A stretch of DNA of 12,893 bases from IMG/VR virus record IMGVR_UViG_2617270988_000017; one strand, written 5' to 3'. This stretch comes from a virus (taxonomy: Duplodnaviria; Heunggongvirae; Uroviricota; Caudoviricetes). The translations under genes were made by a program, and so were the position numbers. Below the pieces are notes generated by a model that did no database searches, was not told the DNA's origin, and saw only the letters and a list, made by a program, of their open reading frames with translations. Below, in pieces: positions 1-10,948 of this stretch (the stretch's first letter is position 1; each line of letters starts with the position of its first letter).

Positions 1-1461
1 ATGAAAAAATTACTGCATCTTTTTTTCCCGCTCTCGCTGCGGGTACGTTTTCTGTTAGCAACGGCAGCAGTAGTATTGGTGCTTTCGCTTGCCTACGGAA
101 TGGTTGCGCTGATCGGTTATAGCGTCAGTTTCGATAAAACCACGTTTCGGCTGTTACGTGGCGAGAGCAATCTGTTCTATACCCTTGCGAAGTGGGAAAA
201 CAATAAGTTGCATGTCGAGTTACCCGAAAATATCGACAAGCAAAGCCCCACCATGACGCTAATTTATGATGAGAACGGGCAGCTTTTATGGGCGCAACGT
301 GACGTGCCCTGGCTGATGAAGATGATCCAGCCTGACTGGCTGAAATCGAATGGTTTTCATGAAATTGAAGCGGATGTTAACGATACCAGCCTCTTGCTGA
401 GTGGAGATCATTCTATACAGCAACAGTTGCAGGAAGTGCGGGAAGATGATGACGACGCGGAGATGACCCACTCGGTGGCGGTAAACGTCTACCCGGCAAC
501 ATCGCGGATGCCAAAGTTAACCATTGTGGTGGTGGATACCATTCCGGTGGAGCTAAAAAGTTCCTATATGGTCTGGAGCTGGTTTATCTATGTGCTCTCA
601 GCCAATCTGCTGTTAGTGATCCCGCTGCTGTGGGTCGCCGCCTGGTGGAGTTTACGCCCCATCGAAGCCCTGGCAAAAGAAGTCCGCGAACTGGAAGAAC
701 ATAACCGCGAATTGCTCAATCCAGCCACAACGCGAGAACTGACCAGTCTGGTACGAAACCTGAACCGACTGTTAAAAAGTGAACGCGAACGTTACGACAA
801 ATATCGTACGACGCTCACCGACCTGACCCATAGTCTGAAAACGCCACTGGCGGTGCTGCAAAGTACGCTGCGTTCTCTGCGTAGTGAGAAGATGAGCGTC
901 AGTGATGCTGAGCCGGTAATGCTGGAGCAAATCAGCCGCATTTCACAGCAAATTGGCTACTACCTGCATCGTGCCAGTATGCGCGGCGGGACATTGCTTA
1001 GCCGCGAGCTGCATCCGGTCGCCCCACTGCTGGACAATCTCACCTCGGCGCTGAACAAAGTGTATCAACGCAAAGGGGTCAATATCTCTCTCGATATTTC
1101 GCCAGAGATCAGCTTTGTCGGTGAGCAGAACGATTTTGTCGAGGTGATGGGCAACGTGCTGGATAATGCCTGTAAATATTGCCTCGAGTTTGTCGAAATA
1201 TCTGCAAGGCAAACAGACGAGCATCTCTATATTGTGGTCGAGGATGATGGCCCCGGTATTCCCTTAAGCAAGCGAGAGGTCATTTTCGACCGTGGTCAAC
1301 GGGTTGATACTTTACGCCCTGGGCAAGGTGTAGGGCTGGCGGTAGCCCGCGAAATCACCGAGCAGTATGAGGGTAAAATCGTCGCCGGAGAGAGCATGCT
1401 GGGCGGTGCGCGGATGGAGGTGATTTTTGGTCGCCAGCATTCTGCGCCGAAAGATGAATAA
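1..1461 (+). CDS. phoQ: Sensor histidine kinase PhoQ of the PhoPQ two-component system, complete
   Basis: The 486-aa translation reads as E. coli PhoQ essentially end to end from memory (MKKLL...[15 protein letters not shown]; periplasmic acidic patch EDDDDAEM; H-box [12 protein letters not shown]; C-terminal [12 protein letters not shown]). ATG at 1, TAA at 1459-1461. Confidence 0.97.
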
Positions 1462-2096: not shown

Positions 2097-2237
2097 GTTT
2101 CCGAAAATATCAGCGGGTTAGCGATTAAGCTGACGAGTAATTAAACTGCGAAAATTTCGTAGTTTGTGACTATCTGAAAGATAGTCGGTTGTTCCGGCCT
2201 CAGCCGTTGGCTGTTTCCGAAAATATCAGTAGGTTAG
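2097..2237. repeat. Pair of about 25-bp direct repeats (GTTTCCGAAAATATCAG + GGTTAG) 116 bp apart, flanking an 8-bp-stem palindrome
   Basis: Copy 1 is at 2097-2121 and copy 2 at 2213-2237, with a 17-bp identical core. Between them, 2168-2186 is GACTATCT-gaa-AGATAGTC. Possible arm or recombination-accessory sites near the element's left end; function not established. Confidence 0.4.
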
Positions 2238-2238
2238 G

Positions 2239-2262
2239 CCAAAGCTCAAAAATGAGCTTTGG
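2239..2262 (-). terminator. Hairpin 16 nt downstream of the 93-aa ORF, possible terminator or RNA-stabilising stem
   Basis: Perfect 10-bp stem CCAAAGCTCA / TGAGCTTTGG with a 4-nt loop. There is no clean U-tract after the stem on the minus strand, so it is a weak terminator call. Confidence 0.35.
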
Positions 2263-2277
2263 AACAATATCAACAAG

Positions 2278-2559
2278 TTACCGCCGTAACCGCTCCGGCT
2301 TCTTCCAGTGGTACGTAATTTTCTCCGTTTCCCGATACAGTGCCACGCGGCGATTGTAGGCCAGCATTTCAAGAACGCGGATCCGTATGTTGCGCATATC
2401 CACATCATTAAGCTGGATACCATCACGGCGCATCACCTCAGCAACAACACGCGCATAATTTTCGGCTGTCACGCTGTCCGGCTGCGTGGCCTGTTCGTCA
2501 GTCTGCTGGCTGATTCCACCAGCACGGCGGATTAATCCCAGTATTTCGGCTTCTGTCAT
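2278..2559 (-). CDS. Hypothetical protein, 93 aa
   Basis: ORF with ATG at 2559-2557 and TAA at 2280-2278. It lies just outside cos-L and reads away from it. No family recognised by eye. Confidence 0.55.
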   Translation of the reverse strand: MTEAEILGLIRRAGGISQQTDEQATQPDSVTAENYARVVAEVMRRDGIQLNDVDMRNIRIRVLEMLAYNRRVALYRETEKITYHWKKPERLRR

Positions 2560-2592
2560 TGTGCACCCATCGTTCTGATTGTCTGGTGTCGT

Positions 2593-2705
2593 CGGGTCCT
2601 TCCTGGAATTATGGACCCGTTACGGGGCGGCGACCTCGCGGTTTTTATCTGTTTATGAAAATTTTCCGGCAAAAGTCAGATCCGTTCTTCTTCTCTGTAA
2701 CAGAC
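2593..2705 (+). other. Lambda-type cos site, left copy (cos-L): cosQ-like, cosN, lambda-like cosB
   Basis: 2593-2636 reads CGGGTCCTTCCTGGAATTATGGACCCGTTACG followed by GGGCGGCGACCT, then CGCGGTTTTTATCTGTTTATGAAAATTTTCCGG...CCGTTCTTCTTC. This closely matches the lambda right-end/left-end junction as I remember it (...CGGGTCCTTTCCGGTGATCCGACAGGTTACG | GGGCGGCGACCTCGCGGGTTTTCGCTATTTATGAAAATTTTCCGG...CCGTTCTTCTTCG). The cosN 12-mer is at 2625-2636. Its packaging direction points into the 3' end of terS. Confidence 0.75.
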
Positions 2706-2723
2706 TGTTTAACAATGAAAATA

Positions 2724-2797
2724 TTAAAAAAAGAAAGGATCTGACACGAGGCATTTTAGCCAGAAAATGCCATTATCAGATCCTTTCTCATTTTTGT
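2724..2797. terminator. Bidirectional Rho-independent terminator downstream of terS
   Basis: Compound hairpin with outer stem AAAGGATCTGA (2734-2744) / TCAGATCCTTT (2776-2786) and inner stem GGCATTTT (2750-2757) / AAAATGCC (2764-2771). An A7 run at 2726-2732 gives a U-tract on the minus strand, and TTTTT at 2791-2795 gives one on the plus strand. Confidence 0.7.
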
Positions 2798-2815
2798 TCA
2801 ATAATTGCGCGTCTG

Positions 2816-3358
2816 TTACTCGCCTTTCTTCTGTAGCAACTTTTCCGGTACGTTTCCGGTTGTTTCTTTCAAGTAATCAGTCAGTATCTGTGGGAGGTTG
2901 TCGGCAACTCTGGCACTGGCATTACAGGCTTTAACCACTTCCCTTTTAAGCCTATCCAGCATGGCGGGGGTAATCTGTGGGAAGCTCCTTTGCATAGTAA
3001 GCGGGAGGCTGTCCATGATTGATGAAATCTGACTCGCCAGCTTTGAAAGCGCGTACAGGCAAAACTCAGTATCAATCACGTCACCGCGATCGCGCTCGTT
3101 TTTAAGTTCCTGCGCCTCCGCCTGTGCTGTCAGTAATCTGATCCTGACTCGTAAGAGTTCATCATCATCAATATCGCCTTTGTCGTTTGTAAGCTGGCTA
3201 ATTGCATTGTTAACCCTATTGTCTATCACGCTGGCAACATCATAAAACGCCTCACGGCCTTTACGTTCAACGGGAGTCACTCCCCACTTGTCGAACGCTG
3301 TCGCACTTACACGGCAGCTTTTCGCCATGTTTTTTTTGTTCATCAGGTGCGATTTCAT
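2816..3358 (-). CDS. Terminase small subunit, lambda Nu1 family
   Basis: The 180-aa product aligns along its length with lambda Nu1 recalled from memory: N-terminal winged-HTH region (NKKNMAKSCRVSATAFDKW vs NKKQLADIFGASIRTIQNW) and C-terminal region (LTAQAEAQELKNERDRGDVIDTEFCLYALSKLASQISSIMDSLPLTMQRSFP vs LTRAQADAQELKNARDSAEVVETAFCTFVLSRIAGEIASILDGLPLSVQRRFP). ATG at 3358-3356. Confidence 0.9.
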   Translation of the reverse strand: MKSHLMNKKNMAKSCRVSATAFDKWGVTPVERKGREAFYDVASVIDNRVNNAISQLTNDKGDIDDDELLRVRIRLLTAQAEAQELKNERDRGDVIDTEFCLYALSKLASQISSIMDSLPLTMQRSFPQITPAMLDRLKREVVKACNASARVADNLPQILTDYLKETTGNVPEKLLQKKGE

Positions 3359-3360
3359 TA

Positions 3361-3534
3361 ATACACCAACTTAATTACTGCTTCAGGTTGGTGTATTGTT
3401 TGCATCTTTCCCTTTTTATTCATAAAGATAGATCAAACAACGAAACCACCACCACCCCCCTGAAAAGGCTCATAAATAGCGAAAAACCGCTAGGTCGCCG
3501 CCCCGTAACGGGCCATAATTCCAGGAAGGACCCG
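3361..3534 (-). other. Lambda-type cos site, right copy (cos-R): cosQ-like, cosN, divergent cosB, directly upstream of terS
   Basis: 3493-3534 is the near-perfect reverse complement of 2593-2635 (42 of 43 positions, one 1-nt indel), with the cosN 12-mer AGGTCGCCGCCC at 3492-3503. On the minus strand it continues CGGTTTTTCGCTATTTATGA (lambda-like), then diverges (CAGGGGGGTGGTGGTGG) and ends in the 10-bp inverted repeat ATACACCAAC (3361-3370) / GTTGGTGTAT (3387-3396) beside the terS ATG. The cosN-cosB-terS order and orientation match lambda. Confidence 0.75.
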
Positions 3535-3535
3535 T

Positions 3536-3558
3536 AAAAAAGCCGGATTTCTCCGGCC
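3536..3558 (-). terminator. Rho-independent terminator ending the capsid operon
   Basis: Minus-strand stem GCCGGA-gaaa-TCCGGC followed by T6 (plus-strand A-run 3536-3540), 6 nt after the stop of the 137-aa ORF. Confidence 0.75.
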
Positions 3559-3563
3559 TTGTC

Positions 3564-3977
3564 TCAGATGGTTTTCAGTATGCGATCGATGTCGCCGTCA
3601 TCGCCCTGGTTTCTGCCATCGTATGCCATGCCAGCTGATACGGCTTGCGGGCTGTGCATGTCCATAAAGTTTTCAAAGGCTGCGGTAAGTTCCGGCGCAA
3701 CCTTCGGACGTTCCTGCTCTATGGTCATGCTAAGGATGCTTTTAGCCGTACCAACATCGATACAAGGCACGTTTGCCATTGCACGCAACAGCGGCTGATA
3801 GTCTTTATGCTCATGAAGCGCCATAATCGCATCAGCGCGCGGCTTGTCCTGCTCTTCCAGTTTGTTTAGTTGATATACGGCCTCATAGGTTGATAAACCT
3901 CTGTCAGCCATTGCCCGCGCTTCGACTTTAAATTTACTCGCCAGCGGTAGCGTCATGATGCTTTCATTCGTTGCCAT
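3564..3977 (-). CDS. Hypothetical protein, 137 aa, last gene of capsid operon
   Basis: ATG at 3977-3975 is preceded by a strong SD (AGGGGGAA) and follows the decoration-gene stop with a short gap. No family recognised. Inferred to be capsid-associated from context only. Confidence 0.65.
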   Translation of the reverse strand: MATNESIMTLPLASKFKVEARAMADRGLSTYEAVYQLNKLEEQDKPRADAIMALHEHKDYQPLLRAMANVPCIDVGTAKSILSMTIEQERPKVAPELTAAFENFMDMHSPQAVSAGMAYDGRNQGDDGDIDRILKTI

Positions 3978-3989
3978 CGTTCCCCCTGC

Positions 3990-4325
3990 TTATCGGGCCA
4001 GCGGCTGAACGGATACGCCGGAACCCGCAAAGGCGGCGCATTTTTTCGCATCGGTGTCGACGCTCTCAGGCCAGTTAACGGCGGCAATATTGAATATCCC
4101 CGTCTTGTAACACTGTGCTGATTTCTGCTTTGACGTGCCCACAGGGTACGAGGTCAGATAAACAGCCTTGCCAGATTCCTGACCATCCCACGGCTTAAAC
4201 TCGCCATTGTCTGCCAGCATCAGCGGGGTAAATTCCTGAATAACGCCAGCATCAGCGGCAAAATGTACCAACGTCGTGGATACCTGCTGACTGCCTGCAA
4301 ATAACTCAATGTATGGAGTGTCCAT
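3990..4325 (-). CDS. Head decoration protein, lambda gpD family
   Basis: The 111-aa product matches lambda gpD from memory ([23 protein letters not shown] vs [59 protein letters not shown] vs [36 protein letters not shown]). SD GGGGGGA upstream of the ATG at 4325. Confidence 0.85.
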   Translation of the reverse strand: [111 protein letters not shown]

Positions 4326-4337
4326 AGAATCCCCCCG

Positions 4338-5393
4338 TTAACCAATTTTGACGGTAACAAATTTGCGAATATCTGCCGGTACCGGCTGCGGTGCACTGTG
4401 TGTCTGCACGTACTCAATCGCCGGATCGCCGTCCTCAATCCAGTTTTTCGGGTAAAACATGTTTTGTGTTGCGCCCGTTCTTACCGCTTCCTGATCCATT
4501 ATCGCACCATAGGCCACCAGCCCTTTATTGTTGGTGTTACCCAGGACCAGCAAATCAGGCTCAAGGAAATATTTTTCGGTACCATCGCTGTCAGTGTATT
4601 TGCCGGAATAGACGATAAGGGCCAGATCACCAAGATAGCCTTTAAAGCTCACCACTTCGCCCAGGTTTTTACAGGCCAGTTCGGCGGCGGATTCTGAACC
4701 ACGGGAAAGATCGTACAGCTCACGGAATTTTTTAAAGCTGCCTAATGTGCGCCATACCTCAGCGCCCATAATCATGACGTTTGCGGGGCAACCAGCCTGA
4801 TCAGCATAAAGCTCGATGTCATAGATTGGGTCGTGCATGTCTTTATCCTGCTCGGACCATTTTTTACCCTTGGCCTGCTCTATGATGCAGTTTTCCGGTA
4901 TTTTCCAGTCGATTTCATAGCGTTCTATGCCTTCGCCCTCAATGATGTTTTTTCCGGTCGTTACCGCATTCACCGCCAGCCATTCCACGCGTGCCTTAAT
5001 GGCGTTTATCTGGCGGCGCATGTTGCCAGTAATCAGGCGCATACGGCGATAGGTAGGGTCGTTAAGCTGTGCCGGATCTTCTCCAGCCATGCGCATGATG
5101 GTTTTCGTTGGATCGATTTCGTGCTTTGGCTTCATGTAGCCAGGTTTGATTGTGCTGGTTTCGTACCCTTTATCGCGCTGAACCTGGCTACCCACCATAG
5201 GCGAACAAAACGCCGACATGGTGACTTCTTCAATGTCCAGGGTATCCAGCATGATGTTTTGCGTGCTGAATGTCGCCACGTTCGGGAAAAACAGCGTGGT
5301 AAACAGAGGGCTGAATTTAAAATCCGCAATATCCCCGCGATTCAGGTACATGAAAAGCTGGTTAGTGTTAAGTGCCGTTGCTTTGCCTGCCAT
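4338..5393 (-). CDS. Major capsid protein, lambda gpE family (HK97 fold)
   Basis: The 351-aa product aligns with lambda gpE over its full length by eye, at moderate identity (for example KPGYMKPKHEIDP vs TPGYVKPKHEVNP; DPTYRRMRLITGNMR vs DPAYRRRRIIMQNMR; LVLGNTNNKGLVAYGAI vs MVLGNTQARGLRTYGCI; YPKNWIEDGDPA vs YPKNWVTTGDPA). SD GGGGGTGA. The E-then-D gene order is the reverse of lambda. Confidence 0.92.
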   Translation of the reverse strand: MAGKATALNTNQLFMYLNRGDIADFKFSPLFTTLFFPNVATFSTQNIMLDTLDIEEVTMSAFCSPMVGSQVQRDKGYETSTIKPGYMKPKHEIDPTKTIMRMAGEDPAQLNDPTYRRMRLITGNMRRQINAIKARVEWLAVNAVTTGKNIIEGEGIERYEIDWKIPENCIIEQAKGKKWSEQDKDMHDPIYDIELYADQAGCPANVMIMGAEVWRTLGSFKKFRELYDLSRGSESAAELACKNLGEVVSFKGYLGDLALIVYSGKYTDSDGTEKYFLEPDLLVLGNTNNKGLVAYGAIMDQEAVRTGATQNMFYPKNWIEDGDPAIEYVQTHSAPQPVPADIRKFVTVKIG

Positions 5394-5599
5394 TATTCAC
5401 CCCCATAATTTTTATGCATCCCAAGCGCCGCAAGTAAATAAGAGCGTACAAGTGAACCTATCGACGGCTCCGGCGTCATCAGCGGATCCAGTCCAGCCGC
5501 AACGCCAGCTTCATAGTTTTTTTTGTGGCGCTGCTTGAGCACCTCCACGATTTCGGGGCTTATGTACACCGAAACACCGCCTTTTTTCTCTTCAGCCAT
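5393..5599 (-). CDS. Hypothetical protein, 68 aa, first gene of capsid operon
   Basis: In-frame ATG at 5599 (MAEEKKGG...) preceded by GAGG. Its stop overlaps the capsid-gene start (TAATG), implying translational coupling. The track's longer start at 5632 has no SD. Confidence 0.5.
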   Translation of the reverse strand: MAEEKKGGVSVYISPEIVEVLKQRHKKNYEAGVAAGLDPLMTPEPSIGSLVRSYLLAALGMHKNYGGE

Positions 5600-5649
5600 A
5601 GTAAGAAATTCCTCTTCGACTAAAAAAATCATAACTGGATGTTTATCCA

Positions 5650-5684
5650 GTCCTGATTATAATCAGAATTGCATTTTATGCAAT
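5650..5684 (-). promoter_or_regulatory. Candidate sigma70 promoter for the capsid operon, embedded in two palindromes
   Basis: Minus strand reads TTGCAT (5683-5678), a 16-nt spacer, then TATAAT (5661-5656). The -10 lies inside the perfect 14-bp palindrome CTGATTATAATCAG (5653-5666) and the -35 inside TTGCAT-ttt-ATGCAA (5669-5683). The first ORF starts about 55 nt downstream. Confidence 0.5.
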
Positions 5685-5764
5685 GATATTGAGTTATGTT
5701 GCAAATTATGAAATGATTATCCCGATCACGAACGCCAGTGCATCCAAAAACCTCATATGCAAAA

Positions 5765-5802: not shown

Positions 5803-5808
5803 GGGCGC

Positions 5809-5830
5809 AAAAAAGCCGGATTGCTCCGGC
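5809..5830 (-). terminator. Rho-independent terminator downstream of the 74-aa cassette ORF
   Basis: Minus-strand GCCGGA-gcaa-TCCGGC followed by T6. Same stem sequence as the terminators at 3536-3558 and 6172-6194. Confidence 0.7.
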
Positions 5831-5850
5831 TATGTGTGCTGTGTGCTGGC

Positions 5851-6201: not shown

Positions 6202-6474
6202 TTAGCTGTCCTGGTAATTGCGCCATATTTCATCACCAGCACCATCTATACCCATTTCGGCATAAGTGCGATCGACTGCCTTTTTCAGGTCTCCGAAATT
6301 ATCCGGCGGCTCCGGTGCCCTCTGTGCCTTCCTTGAACATTCCAGCCGTCGCATCGTGATGTGATGCCGTTCCTTGTCTGTCTCCACCAGCTGCATGACT
6401 TCACCCCATCGCGCCGCCGCCCTCCGGTAAAAGCCTTTCGCCTCCAGTTCCTCCGCTATGCGGTCATGTACCAT
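6202..6474 (-). CDS. PerC-family transcriptional activator-like protein, 90 aa
   Basis: Start MVHDRIAEELEAKGFYRRAAARWGEVM carries the PerC/Pch-type N-terminal motif as I recall it. ATG at 6474 has a strong SD (GAGGGGGTGA). The track's longer version overlaps ssb and is rejected. Confidence 0.65.
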   Translation of the reverse strand: MVHDRIAEELEAKGFYRRAAARWGEVMQLVETDKERHHITMRRLECSRKAQRAPEPPDNFGDLKKAVDRTYAEMGIDGAGDEIWRNYQDS

Positions 6475-7348: not shown

Positions 7349-8743
7349 GCGGCGCTACATCATCCCCATCGATACGAATAACCCCATCTTTTTCCAGCTT
7401 GTACAGCCAGCGCCGGAAGTTTTTCATTTCATACCCCAGCTTTTTCATGTCATCACGTAACAGCGGGATCGTGCACTTGTCGCCGTTCTGTGTGCGTGAA
7501 CGGATGCACCCCCATAGCGCGGTATGGTTTTCCGTCTTGTTCCCTGCCTCCTCGATGCGCTCCAGTTCAACAGGAGGGCGCGGATCATCCACCACCACCA
7601 GCGACGTGATTAATTCACCGTCAGCGTCGGTAAAAAGCTCCACCACGCGTAAGTCATATGCGGCTTCTTTGAGTTCCTCCGCGTCCTTCATTTTGGTGCA
7701 TGAGATAACCAGCGCTTCGCTTCCTGCGTCCTCCCTGCGTATCCGGTATTCAGCATCCAGCGAAGCACGAAATGCACTGGAACCGCGCGCGCCTTTCGTC
7801 TCATCCTTGCCGGAATGGTGAACCACCAGCACCGTGGCCCCTGTGCGTCGTTTCAGTTCGTCACAACCACGGATAAACGCCCCATATCACGGGAATCATT
7901 TTCATCATTCCCACCAAAGCAACGCGCCAGCGTATCCAGAATAATCATGCGTACAGGTTTACCCGTTTCCCGCTCCACCTGACGGGCAGCGATAACCATT
8001 TCATCAACATCAAGCGGGGCAGCCGGAAAGATGGGGCGGTTTACCAGATACAGATTTTTCACCTGCTCATCGTGCACAACCTCCCAGGCTTTTACACGAC
8101 GCGGAACACCTATACCGCCTTCACCAACCACATAGAGAACCGCACCATGTGCAACCCTGCGGCCTCCCCACTGGCGACCAGTGGCAACATGGCACGCCCA
8201 CGATCCGGCAAGGAATGATTTATAGGACCCGCTAGCCCCGTATATGCTGCATAGCGATACCGCCGGAATAATCCCCTTAACCACGTAATCCAGTTGCGTG
8301 TCGTATCCGGTAGATCCAACGCTCATCGGTAGCGTGGTTTTTCGCTGGTGGTTTTTTTCTTCCGCCGGCTCTTTCCCGCGCACCCGTTCCAGGTATTCGC
8401 GCCAGTTCTCCCGCATATGGCTGTGCATCCCTTCGGGGTAATAATTCGCATCAGTTACACCCGCCGCCGCCAGCTTGTGCGCAATGGCATTAATATTTGA
8501 TGGCCTGATGTGGCCTGCCTTGTACAGCCGGACACAATAGCGCCCCTCGTCGATGATTCTCAGGTCTGCCAGTTCATCCAGTTGATCATCAGCCAGCACA
8601 ACGGGAGGCACATTATCGCCAGCCAGTCGCCCGTCCTGTTCCTGCCACTGTTTCGCATGTGCCCAGGCATCACTACCCGCAAAAATAATGACTTCGGTCA
8701 TCTTGTCGTAAGGCTGTTTTTTTAAGTTCGGTGCGCTTTTCAT
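7344..8743 (-). pseudogene. Replication protein (primase/helicase-like, RepA-type P-loop ATPase with C-terminal winged-helix-like tail); reading frame interrupted near 7880
   Basis: The N-terminal ORF (8743..7853) has a Walker-A-like GASGSYKS and ILDTLARCFGG. The C-terminal ORF (7832..7344) continues in another frame with VVHHSGKDETKGARGSSAFRASLD, typical of RepA/AAA_25-like ATPases. The total span is 1400 nt, not a multiple of 3. The frames join if the G4 run (plus-strand CCCC 7880-7883) is G5, giving ...DSRDMGAFIRGCDELKRRTGATVLVVHH... Confidence 0.7.
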
Positions 8744-9501: not shown

Positions 9502-9715
9502 AACCCCCCCCATTTTCACAATCAGCAACAAGAATATTTTTAGCGTCATTCAGCGACCGCGTTGCGATGTATCGGATACATTCCAGGGCGAACTGTGTCC
9601 GGTCTTTCTGTTCTTCTCCCTGCGCAAGCTCTGCAGTGCATTCAATATCGATAAGCGCGTGCATCAGCGTAGTGAGCGCGTCGGCTGCTGCGTCCGGTGT
9701 GGTTTTATTGCACAT
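9494..9715 (-). CDS. Hypothetical small acidic protein, 73 aa
   Basis: ATG at 9715-9713 (MCNKTTPDAAADAL...) preceded by a strong SD (AGGAGGTG). It ends in NGGGYA encoded by a G8 run and overlaps the next start. Confidence 0.6.
   Translation of the reverse strand: MCNKTTPDAAADALTTLMHALIDIECTAELAQGEEQKDRTQFALECIRYIATRSLNDAKNILVADCENGGGYA
9504..9511. repeat. C8/G8 homopolymer at a gene junction
   Basis: Eight consecutive C on the plus strand (G on the coding strand). It encodes the GGG tail of the upstream ORF and lies 2 nt before the ATG of the downstream ORF. Confidence 0.9.
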
Positions 9716-9896
9716 GGCACACCTCCTGACGAATACGGGCGGCGAATACAGCAACACAACCGGACGGGCAACGGCTACGCGCTTCGCGTTCCGTCCAGGC
9801 GGTTACGTGGATGATTTGATGTTCTGACGCGCCAAAGATGATAAAGCGCCAGAGAAAGGCGGTTTGAGAATGTACAAGGGTAGGGATAGTAGCCAT
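9705..9896 (-). CDS. Small protein, 63 aa; possibly Icd-like (host cell division inhibitor family), tentative
   Basis: ATG at 9896 with SD GAGGAGG 8 nt upstream, TAA at 9707-9705. The WRF and FAARIRQ motifs resemble what I recall of Icd-like small proteins from P4-like islands, but this is unverified. A diverged tandem copy lies 369 bp upstream. Confidence 0.5.
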   Translation of the reverse strand: MATIPTLVHSQTAFLWRFIIFGASEHQIIHVTAWTEREARSRCPSGCVAVFAARIRQEVCHVQ

Positions 9897-10056
9897 GTTG
9901 GCAGCCTCCTCAGTGTGGTTAAGATAACCGCCACCGGAAACGCCAATTTCGCTGGTGGCGGACTGTACAGGGTTGGCGTAACCGGACACTGAAGAAACCG
10001 GCGCGGATTGCTCCGCCCCCGTACAGCCCACCATTGATAAGGTGTGACTATGCGGC

Positions 10057-10082
10057 ACAAAAAAACACGCGGGGCGCGTGTT
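10057..10082 (-). terminator. Strong Rho-independent terminator signature inside the upstream tandem copy
   Basis: Minus strand reads AACACGCG-CCC-CGCGTGTT followed by TTTTTTT (plus-strand A7 at 10059-10065). It is GC-rich with an uninterrupted U-tract. Confidence 0.65.
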
Positions 10083-10265
10083 ATGCGCTTCAGTTTTGCC
10101 CAGGACGCCAATCCCGGCACCCGTTTTATGAGGTGCGCGGGAATCATAGCTATTTTCGACACTGGCGATCAACTGGTTTTTTTCTCCGATATTCAGGGCC
10201 AGAAAACGCCACACAAAGGCCGTTTGTGTGTGTACAAGGTGTGGTATATGATTTACGGCAACCAT
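10083..10265 (-). pseudogene. Degenerate tandem paralogue of the 63-aa ORF (or translated leader); no in-frame stop before the terminator
   Basis: ATG at 10265 with SD AGGAG. The first 30 or so codons are homologous to the downstream ORF (PHLVHTQTAFVWRFLAL vs PTLVHSQTAFLWRFIIF) with synonymous and conservative changes. The frame then runs through the terminator without a stop, and a C-terminal-like motif (RVFLCRI vs AVFAARI) appears only in another frame. Confidence 0.35.
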
Positions 10266-10293
10266 AACGGCTCCTAGTTTACGTTGTTGGTTA

Positions 10294-10328
10294 GACGCCC
10301 CGTATGTGTTCCCAGCACTGCGGGGCGT
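10294..10328. promoter_or_regulatory. 8-bp inverted repeat ACGCCCCG / CGGGGCGT with a 19-bp spacer in the divergent control region
   Basis: Arms at 10294-10301 and 10321-10328, in the 5' leader of the minus-strand small-ORF operon and upstream of the RHH promoter. Confidence 0.4.
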
Positions 10329-10353
10329 TGATTTTTGTGTAATGGCAAGTACA

Positions 10354-10395
10354 ATGGTAATTACCATGTAGGTATAGTAATGAAGGGTAATTACC
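10354..10395. promoter_or_regulatory. Two GGTAATTACC operator-like palindromes at the RHH gene promoter
   Basis: Perfect 14-bp palindrome ATGGTAATTACCAT at 10354-10367 and GGTAATTACC at 10386-10395, centres 30 bp apart. The second abuts the RHH ATG. A TATAGT -10-like hexamer is at 10373-10378. Confidence 0.6.
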
Positions 10396-10569
10396 ATGTC
10401 AACACCATTAGAAAAACGTTCGCCTCCATACCAAATGCGATTACCGGAAGACTTCAGAGCGCAGCTAGAAGAAGCAGCTAAGGCCGATGGCGACACATCT
10501 TTAGCCACTTGGATTAAACGCGTTCTCCGCAAAGAATTACAGCAACGCGGCATAGAACCCAAAGGATAA
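10396..10569 (+). CDS. Ribbon-helix-helix (Arc/CopG-like) DNA-binding protein, 57 aa
   Basis: ATG at 10396, TAA at 10567-10569. The product MSTPLEKRSPPYQMRLPEDFRAQLEEAAKADGDTSLATWIKRVLRKEL has the typical RHH pattern (beta-strand YQMRLP, then two helices). It is absent from the ORF track because it is under 60 aa. Confidence 0.7.
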   Translation: MSTPLEKRSPPYQMRLPEDFRAQLEEAAKADGDTSLATWIKRVLRKELQQRGIEPKG

Positions 10570-10611
10570 AAACTATCAGCGCCGTGGTGTGAGGTATTAC
10601 GGCGCATTGCT

Positions 10612-10800
10612 ATGCAGGACAACACAATGACCGATAAAGAATTGACCAAAACATTATCACCGGCACGGAAAAGACGGCGCAGAAAGATAGAGCATGAATC
10701 AGAAAGATTCGCGCCATGTGCTTTTGCCCTTGAGCAATTCCTTAAAGAGTACAGGGAAAAGCGCTCATTGCAGGTATGGCAACGAACTGAACCAGACTGA
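10612..10800 (+). CDS. Hypothetical small basic protein, 62 aa, downstream of the RHH gene
   Basis: ATG at 10612 (alternative ATG at 10627 with AGGA upstream). It contains an ARKRRRRK basic patch. The coding call is weak. Confidence 0.4.
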   Translation: MQDNTMTDKELTKTLSPARKRRRRKIEHESERFAPCAFALEQFLKEYREKRSLQVWQRTEPD

Positions 10801-10894
10801 TTGCATTGCCCACCAGCCTGATAGCGGCTATCATCCCCGTGCTTATGTTTGGGATCACATACACATAAGGCGCAGCGGGTTAATTGTTCAGAAA

Positions 10895-10922
10895 GGCGGC
10901 TCCATATCGGGGCCGCTTTTTT
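10895..10922 (+). terminator. Rho-independent terminator between convergent alpA and the RHH operon
   Basis: Stem GGCGGCTCC (10895-10903) / GGGGCCGC (10909-10916) followed by T6 (10917-10922). Confidence 0.65.
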
Positions 10923-10948
10923 CGTGTTTGTCATATCTGTGATACCCG

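Follow-up and report, generated by a model that had tools for sequence, protein, structure and literature searches.

Capsid genes are reported to be the commonest phage late genes in the phage-inducible chromosomal islands (PICIs) of Gram-negative bacteria. They occur in 21 of 29 reference PICIs, and both a review and a paper on helper-embedded PICIs describe them as common but dispensable. In EcCICFT073 of Escherichia coli CFT073, an island for which helper-dependent induction and high-frequency transfer have been shown experimentally, the genes concerned are c1498-c1501. Here we describe their counterparts in a stretch of viral DNA of 12,893 nucleotides (nt), IMG/VR record IMGVR_UViG_2617270988_000017, which we call the window. 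They lie in a block on the minus strand at 3564-5599 and encode, in this order, ORF68, a gpE-like capsid protein, a gpD-like decoration protein and ORF137 (ORF, open reading frame). The best explanation, to which we give a probability of about 0.55, is that the block is the capsid module of an EcCICFT073-type PICI, consisting of ORF68, a PICI-lineage gpE, a gpD and a mini-scaffold, ORF137.

The orthologous genes of EcCICFT073 have been studied by mutation. The supplementary table of Fillol-Salom et al. (2018; PMC6092414) gives c1498 a length of 68 amino acids and c1501 a length of 137 amino acids. The standard marked island of that study, c1501::tetA, in which the ORF137 orthologue is disrupted, still transfers (PMC6092414). 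Deletion of c1499 or c1500 leaves transfer and lambda interference unchanged, and c1499::cat transfers even better, because its marker is size-neutral and keeps the size of the island (PMC6092414). The EcCICFT073 DNA packaged by lambda is phage-sized, and the authors report no phenotype for c1499 (PMC6092414). An island in which c1498-c1501 are replaced by a melA cassette still yields transducing lysates. When the post-ori genes were expressed singly, c1503 (RppA) alone blocked lambda and phi80, and plaques were restored by Δc1503; the genes tested in this way are assumed here to include c1498-c1501, although the source text does not name them.

Several other satellites invite comparison. CpmB of SaPI1, which works with CpmA, is a small helical protein that shares the C-terminal region of the helper scaffold and competes for capsid protein through it. 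ORF137, predicted to be helical as well, resembles CpmB in principle, with no sequence relationship detected. In contrast to SaPI1, however, the island has no CpmA counterpart and brings its own capsid protein, and small capsids have not been reported for the orthologous EcCICFT073. ORF137 is not a member of the CpmB family. Ccm of SaPIbov5 and the capsid homologue of PmCI172 are, like the gpE-like protein, satellite HK97-fold capsid proteins distantly related to that of the helper; both small capsids and interference depend on Ccm, whereas no phenotype is reported for the deletion of c1499. The capsid-forming PICIs (EcCIEDL933 type) share with the island an int-alpA-rep backbone and a satellite-encoded capsid protein, but they also encode portal, protease, head-tail connectors, HNH and both the small and the large terminase (TerS and TerL). 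No ORFs or domains for portal, protease, connectors or TerL were found in the window, and the island is therefore not a capsid-forming PICI. P4, a satellite of E. coli phages, combines a scaffold and a decoration function in Sid and Psu, as seems to be the case here. Sid is an external scaffold, however, and the architecture of the island is PICI-like rather than P4-like. In Pfam and PHROG, neither ORF68 nor ORF137 is linked to a named capsid-size or decoration family beyond the match of ORF137 to gpC/Nu3 described below.

Judged by its gene content and position, the window is an EcCICFT073-type Gram-negative PICI inserted between phoQ and roxA, because a corresponding arrangement lies between these two genes in other E. 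coli genomes, CFT073 included. CFT073 and one further E. coli genome have a matching locus and gene order, and a near-identical island at the same site (phoQ and roxA approximately 11-12 kb apart; locus L001) has its integrase and AlpA annotated. A single place covering at least 80% of the query region 2200-5700 was found in 492 of 5426 complete E. coli genomes. Several features expected of a PICI are present: a tyrosine integrase at one end followed by alpA, genes in one direction, helper-type cos sites with a packaging-redirection gene, and a size of approximately 10-12 kb. The island shares with EcCICFT073 the phoQ site, the gene order, the lengths of the four module proteins (68, 351, 111 and 137 amino acids) and an inverted pair of cos sites. 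Identity to the CFT073 orthologues is 97% for ORF137 and the gpD-like protein, 96% for the capsid protein and 68% for ORF68. The island differs from EcCICFT073 in its divergent ORF68 allele, a Nu1-type TerS in place of RppA and a frameshifted replicase gene. The element and its genes are already known, and the practical outcome for the window is an annotation correction and a pointer to existing experiments.

ORF137 and the Nu3/gpC scaffold

Profile and pairwise comparisons show ORF137 to be homologous to the C-terminal region of the lambda-type Nu3/gpC scaffold, shortened and encoded by a gene of its own. Residues 47-119 match phrog_53, the family of head maturation proteases that corresponds to lambda gpC, at profile positions 496-567 of 583 (6e-9). 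In BLASTP, residues 49-131 align with residues 416-493 of the 501-residue gpC of the CFT073 helper prophage, a lambdoid neighbour of the island there and the closest match among Nu3/gpC proteins, with 37% identity (3e-10). An hhalign comparison of the ORF137 family with Nu3/gpC C-termini, including lambda Nu3, gives a probability of 96.7% (E-value 4e-10) over residues 45-119. Among 50,697 phage genomes, the phage hits of ORF137 are Nu3-annotated genes only. The family is very narrow: an exhaustive HMMER search with the ORF137 profile against 1.84 billion representatives returned only 13 proteins, which comprise the ORF137 family itself and a few phage Nu3-like proteins or gpC C-terminal fragments. 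In the reciprocal direction, one of these, a 195 amino acid phage Nu3-like protein, hits the ORF137 family profile (phrog_1999) at 1e-41, and the same protein matches families named “head scaffolding protein” and “capsid assembly protein.”

The alignment of these phage proteins with lambda Nu3 shows a series of repeats (IMxL..EA.GRE.LA..LA..PGMTV..A..IL) followed by a tail (F-E/D-x-F-M-x-x-H-S-P-x-x-V). ORF137 retains the last repeat (IMAL...LA..P.M/I.V..A..IL) and the tail (FENFMxxHSPxAV, with the core FxxFMxxHSP), and it is the segment of residues 45-119 that aligns with this part of Nu3/gpC. The protease domain and most of the scaffold repeats are missing. The gene context is also different. 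Lambda Nu3 (201 amino acids) is nested in frame in the protease gene upstream of D, whereas ORF137 is a separate gene that stands alone downstream of D, and an S49 protease was not found in the window. The N-terminus and the extreme C-terminal residues differ as well. With homology to the C-terminal scaffold region and without the nested position upstream of D and E, ORF137 is best described, on present alignments, as a stand-alone Nu3 derivative. An earlier sequence-only reading of this DNA had listed scaffold, portal and protease as absent from the block; portal and protease are indeed missing from the window, but a scaffold homologue is there. The same reading had called both flanking ORFs unassigned and likened them to Sid and CpmAB in role but not in sequence. 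For ORF137 neither statement holds any longer, since its C-terminal region is homologous to that of the helper scaffold. In the PICI literature that we searched the scaffold assignment was not found, and we regard it as a modest addition.

Natural variants of 93 amino acids (P0028, P0030 and P0031) lack residues 21-64. Two “RAMA” motifs are fused in frame by this deletion, a hint that internal repeats have recombined. ORF137 possibly carries a degenerate second repeat.

A number of observations weigh against a scaffold role. Direct BLASTP of ORF137 against lambda Nu3 finds no match, the relation emerging only via the gpC of the helper prophage and via profiles; this is probably the reason that the gene is still “hypothetical” in RefSeq. 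Homology is limited to residues 45-119. Nothing in Nu3/gpC corresponds to the first 44 residues or to the conserved IDRILKTI at the C-terminus (helper gpC ends in DVKMLMAMP), and the N-terminal 47 residues give nothing significant against Nu3 profiles. Support for the internal repeat is marginal: an equally high score was reached by 103 of 2000 shuffles (p-value approximately 0.05). The AlphaFold2 model is all-helical and, with a mean confidence (pLDDT) of 52, too poor a basis for a fold search; such a model is compatible with a flexible scaffold and is not evidence in itself. In two Salmonella PICIs (L004 9764-9997; L006 9719-9958) the ORF68 homologue, E and D are kept while an unrelated ORF of 77-79 amino acids replaces ORF137, which is therefore not indispensable to the module. 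Finally, disruption of c1501, or removal of the whole module, leaves transfer intact. Pfam and NCBIfam have no match for ORF137 (NCBIfam is silent for all six late-region proteins), and sequence searches of the PDB with ORF137 and ORF68 give chance hits only.

The Salmonella replacement ORF has no detectable relation to ORF137 or Nu3. It has an acidic stretch and a hydrophobic C-terminal tail that together are superficially like a scaffold tail; the homology is not significant.

The capsid operon and its first gene

The four genes are packed as the sequence-only reading described them, and their coordinates, the TAATG overlap, the 12-nt gaps and the G-rich Shine-Dalgarno sequences are all exact. 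Its assignments of the gpE and gpD homologues and its remark that E precedes D, the reverse of the lambda order, are borne out too. The gpE-like protein matches the Pfam family Phage_cap_E at 2e-49 and is 43% identical to lambda gpE and 45% identical to the gpE of the CFT073 helper prophage. It is near-identical (9e-231) to PDB entry 3BQW, a 351 amino acid “putative capsid protein of prophage,” so that a crystal structure of a PICI capsid protein already exists. A scan of a genome collection with the capsid protein gave no match, owing to its use of exact-word patterns only. The gpD-like protein matches the Pfam family HDPD (6e-17) and lambda gpD in BLASTP (3e-12), and its PDB relatives are 1TD0 and 1C5E.

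PICI capsid proteins form their own clade of gpE with clade-specific insertions in the N-arm. When E. coli-type and Salmonella-type PICIs are compared, conservation of the capsid protein is lowest in its N-terminal 30 residues (37%, as opposed to 50-87% over the rest). This divergence of the N-arm and the exchange of ORF137 fit a matched pair of N-arm and scaffold, in a comparison of two lineages only.

The window contains 105 ORFs of at least 40 amino acids, and ORFs of the size of ORF68 and ORF137 are common by chance. We nevertheless consider both to be real genes, because they match PHROG families (ORF68, in a 79 amino acid reading, at 1.6e-54; ORF137 at 4e-67 to phrog_1999), because their frame and length are kept across E. 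coli PICIs (for ORF68 across Salmonella too) and because their dN/dS is low. The values are 0.10-0.43 for ORF68 and 0.26-0.28 for ORF137 (at 16% divergence), compared to 0.11-0.14 for the gpE-like and 0.14-0.25 for the gpD-like gene. All four genes of the module are under purifying selection. Of the two candidate starts of ORF68, it is the ATG at 5599, giving 68 amino acids, that is conserved, rather than the one further upstream at 5632. Conservation of the module extends to PICIs at differing integration sites, one of them helper-embedded, and to Salmonella.

The helper-embedded case merits a brief description. In locus L009 (5379-7414 and 8918-14410) the four-gene module lies in a PICI that adjoins an ORF with a GpA_nuclease domain, which looks to be the truncated terminase gene A belonging to a lambda-like prophage. 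The W, portal, protease, D and E genes of the prophage come next, which is the configuration of a helper-embedded PICI.

The four genes are one transcription unit, as the sequence-only reading had supposed when it called them probably co-expressed. This claim is sound because the genes are coupled, terminators bracket them, the promoter is conserved and c1498-c1501 increase jointly: in a CFT073 transcriptome study their levels rise in concert when the temperature goes from 23 to 37 °C. A terminator hairpin, AGCCGGA-N4-TCCGGCT with a T-run, is found in three near-identical copies on the minus strand (6199-6170, 5835-5806 and 3562-3533), which stand after the PerC gene, after the 74 amino acid ORF and after ORF137; the last two bracket the four-gene block. 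As predicted from these copies, one reused hairpin punctuates the island into modules. The predicted promoter is TTGCAT-16 nt-TATAAT at 5683-5656, with a perfect -10 element. Two palindromes overlap it, one of 17 bp, ATTGCAT-AAA-ATGCAAT (in short, ATTGC-N7-GCAAT), and one of 12 bp, TGATTATAATCA. Approximately 100 nt upstream of ORF68 are conserved in an alignment with CFT073, another E. coli PICI and two Salmonella PICIs. The leader also has a hairpin, GACTGGAT-aaac-ATCCAGT at 5652-5633, followed by a T-run; it is absent in one PICI lineage (L008) and hence not universal. We considered this hairpin as a Q-type antitermination target or an attenuator, and dropped the idea because its T-run shows a 4-nt offset and that lineage lacks the hairpin.

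What might ORF68 do? Members of its small family were found only in Enterobacterales (E. coli, Salmonella, Pluralibacter and Edwardsiella), and wherever a neighbourhood was examined it proved to be that of a PICI. In five of five such loci the capsid gene follows ORF68 directly. The AlphaFold2 model (pLDDT 74) has an extended segment, GVSVYIS, followed by two helices. A strand followed by two helices is the pattern of a ribbon-helix-helix (RHH) monomer, and we take the model as a lead only. The recurrent Pfam hits of the family point in the same direction, both below the cut-offs: RHH_1 in four of 28 members (best E-value 0.064) and BrnA_antitoxin in one (0.017). No sequence match of ORF68 to RHH proteins rises above threshold. 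Foldseek and a PDB profile search return nothing significant, and hhalign of the ORF68 family against RHH sequences is not significant either (E-value 0.088, probability 0.65%), the register being as expected. Of the remote homology and structure predictions that the sequence-only reading had proposed for both ORFs, the homology searches assign ORF137; ORF68 is left with RHH hits below threshold. It is tempting to speculate, as a weak lead, that ORF68 might be a small dimeric DNA-binding regulator of RHH type that acts on its operon through the promoter palindromes. The candidate operators, ATTGC-N7-GCAAT and TGATTATAATCA, are conserved across PICIs.

The main alternative is that ORF68 is a partner of the capsid protein, i.e., a chaperone, a minor shell protein or an assembly factor, coupled to it by the TAATG. 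In every PICI examined ORF68 strictly adjoins the capsid gene and is translationally coupled to it, which would fit a partner, as would the lack of a significant match to a DNA-binding family. The strand-then-two-helices pattern, recurrent hits that are to RHH families only and the conserved palindromes at the operon promoter speak for a regulator instead, and the small first gene of an operon is the typical position of an autoregulator. We consider a capsid partner possible, if doubtful. Searches of Pfam and PHROG show no link of ORF68 to capsid proteins, and most likely it is not a capsid-size factor. The suggestion in the sequence-only reading that the two small proteins are assembly-related is therefore upheld for ORF137, as a relative of the Nu3/gpC scaffold, and not for ORF68.

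Possible roles of the module

Provided that ORF137 shares the capsid-binding ability of Nu3, it could serve as a small internal scaffold or chaperone for the island's capsid protein, or as a competitor of the helper's Nu3/gpC. Capsid protein, decoration protein and mini-scaffold would then make up a partial “shell kit,” accompanied in this island by cos sites and its own Nu1-type TerS, that would rely on the helper for portal, protease, TerL, connectors and tail, while ORF68 would control or accompany the expression of the operon. For the helpers tried in published work, the module leaves the capsid size unchanged and is dispensable for transfer. Its value may be helper-specific or condition-specific. 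The truncated Nu3-type scaffold, together with purifying selection, turns a “capsid homologue of unknown use” into a testable picture, in which the island keeps a matched set of capsid, decoration and scaffold genes under its own conserved promoter. Should the set form shells with the aid of some helpers, it would link the classical PICIs to the capsid-forming ones and represent a new form of capsid piracy; otherwise it stays a puzzle why a seemingly dispensable module is so strongly conserved.

The sequence-only reading raised a different role, in which one or both of ORF68 and ORF137 would make the helper build shells of island size, or would help the PICI capsid protein to assemble on the portal of the helper. 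ORF137 would then act in a CpmB-like manner, imitating the capsid-binding end of the helper scaffold. The sharing of a C-terminal scaffold region between ORF137 and the gpC/Nu3 of a natural helper matches the principle of CpmB, small capsids are made by the related PICI PmCI172, which encodes a capsid homologue, purifying selection acts on the module, and by simple arithmetic approximately 11 kb would suit a T=3-sized shell. The published data on the orthologues contradict a role in setting capsid size. EcCICFT073 DNA in lambda particles is phage-sized, and islands with Δc1499, Δc1500, c1501::tetA or the c1498-c1501 replacement all transfer. A size-neutral marker raised transfer, as expected for multimers in full-sized heads. 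Single post-ori genes other than c1503 were harmless to lambda and phi80 (the source does not name them), and ORF68 has no capsid-related similarity. Size redirection is unlikely also because an island of approximately 11 kb fits a lambda-sized head as a tetramer, again by arithmetic, in agreement with the effect of marker size. The same reading had held that deletions without effect on particle size or transfer would speak against it, and for the orthologous genes this outcome is largely in print already. There is one caveat that favours it: the marked islands of 2018 (c1501::tetA and c1499::cat) carried the marker inside the capsid module and so were disrupted there, and these experiments therefore leave some room for a role of the intact module with particular helpers, above all the native one, whose gpC resembles ORF137. 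We consider redirection improbable on balance.

That caveat also bears on a more active form of the shell kit. The intact module, with cos sites and TerS, might be a working minimal kit that makes PICI-specific or hybrid capsids on the helper portal, possibly smaller ones, with the right lambdoid helper or at 37 °C. Such activity could have been missed because the islands of 2018 were marked inside c1499 or c1501. We think this unlikely; if true, it would make the island an intermediate between classical and capsid-forming PICIs. The rise of the genes at 37 °C in cultures without phage-inducing treatment may be read in another way, namely that the module is an anti-phage device whose proteins would poison or mis-scaffold the head assembly of particular non-helper or competing lambdoid phages, ORF137 being a dominant-negative fragment of Nu3. 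A truncated scaffold that keeps the C-terminal region, with its presumed binding role, is a plausible competitive inhibitor, and interference functions are common in PICIs. Lambda interference, however, is not relieved by Δc1499 or Δc1500, and c1503 was the only gene to block lambda and phi80 singly, with plaques restored by its deletion. Positive signs of a defence system did not emerge, no PADLOC search having been made. An anti-phage device is accordingly rather improbable. Least probable of all, in our opinion, is that the module was captured from the late genes of a helper and is without a function of its own, a store of spare parts or a decaying relic, e.g., a backup capsid for helper-embedded PICIs that interrupt the head genes of a prophage. 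The literature on helper-embedded PICIs proposes this backup idea, capsid genes are found in 21 of the 29 reference PICIs and yet are dispensable, the module is present in the helper-embedded PICI within a lambda-like prophage, and published work found no phenotype. Nevertheless, the capsid gene is not a recent capture, because the protein is only 43-45% identical to the gpE of lambda and of the helper prophage and belongs to a clade of its own with specific insertions. Strong purifying selection, frames kept from E. coli to Salmonella, and a conserved gene order and promoter are likewise not what one expects of relics.

Layout of the window, cos sites and small terminase

In the table below we list the features of the window from phoQ to the integrase.

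Features of the 12,893-nt window, in order of position
Feature	Position	Strand	Remarks
End of phoQ	1-1461	+	Window start
Second lambda-type cosN, GGGCGGCGACCT	2625-2636	+	Inverted partner
Full-length Nu1-type small terminase, 180 amino acids	2816-3358	-	Pfam Phage_Nu1, 2e-23
93 amino acid ORF	beyond the Nu1-like gene in minus-strand order	-	
Lambda-type cosN, GGGCGGCGACCT	3492-3503	-	Just downstream of the operon
Terminal intrinsic terminator (predicted)	3533-3562	-	Operon end
ORF137 (c1501 orthologue)	3564-3977	-	12-nt gap before it, containing GGGGGA
gpD-like decoration gene, 111 amino acids	3990-4325	-	12-nt gap before it, containing GGGGGG
gpE-like capsid gene, 351 amino acids	4338-5393	-	ATG at 5393 shares one base with the ORF68 stop (TAATG)
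ORF68 (c1498 orthologue)	5393-5599	-	ATG at 5599, stop TAA at 5395-5393
Operon promoter and leader	5633-5720	-	Conserved, non-coding
Upstream intrinsic terminator (predicted)	5806-5835	-	Divides the operon from the 74 amino acid ORF and PerC genes
74 amino acid ORF	between the PerC gene and the capsid operon	-	
PerC-family regulator	6202-6474 (ORF callable to 6594)	-	Pfam 1e-42; overlaps the end of the SSB gene
SSB gene	6895-6485	-	
AAA_25 replicase	8743-7344	-	
DUF4222 gene	between the AlpA-like gene and the replicase	-	
AlpA-like gene	11155-10949	-	Pfam match under the cut-off in this copy (E-value 0.0028)
Integrase	12893-11652	-	Integrase domains, 5.7e-29

PerC-like genes of PICIs are linked to control of the virulence island LEE (locus of enterocyte effacement). 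The replicase gene is split by a frameshift at approximately 7835-7850 into pieces of 296 and 162 amino acids, and intact homologues of 468-471 amino acids can be aligned over this junction by using two frames. Replication is probably defective in this copy of the island. A minus-strand ORF at 9705-10934 has an odd composition and overlaps small plus-strand ORFs at 10396-10569 and 10612-10800; in a related island, small plus-strand genes are annotated at the matching position. The minus-strand ORF is probably not a gene.

The two cosN sites are inverted with respect to each other and lie within an inverted repeat of approximately 77 nt (arms at 2593-2669 and 3459-3534) that flanks the Nu1-like gene. 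We considered this arrangement as a possible novelty and rejected it: the corresponding pair in CFT073 has been published as the functional sites cos1 and cos2 (PMC6092414). The gene between them is a point of difference. EcCICFT073 encodes RppA (144 amino acids) where this island encodes a Nu1-type TerS, which is 35% identical to lambda Nu1 over 179 amino acids (1e-34) and shows no similarity to RppA. Judging from this gene, the island may direct its own packaging by TerS rather than by Rpp.

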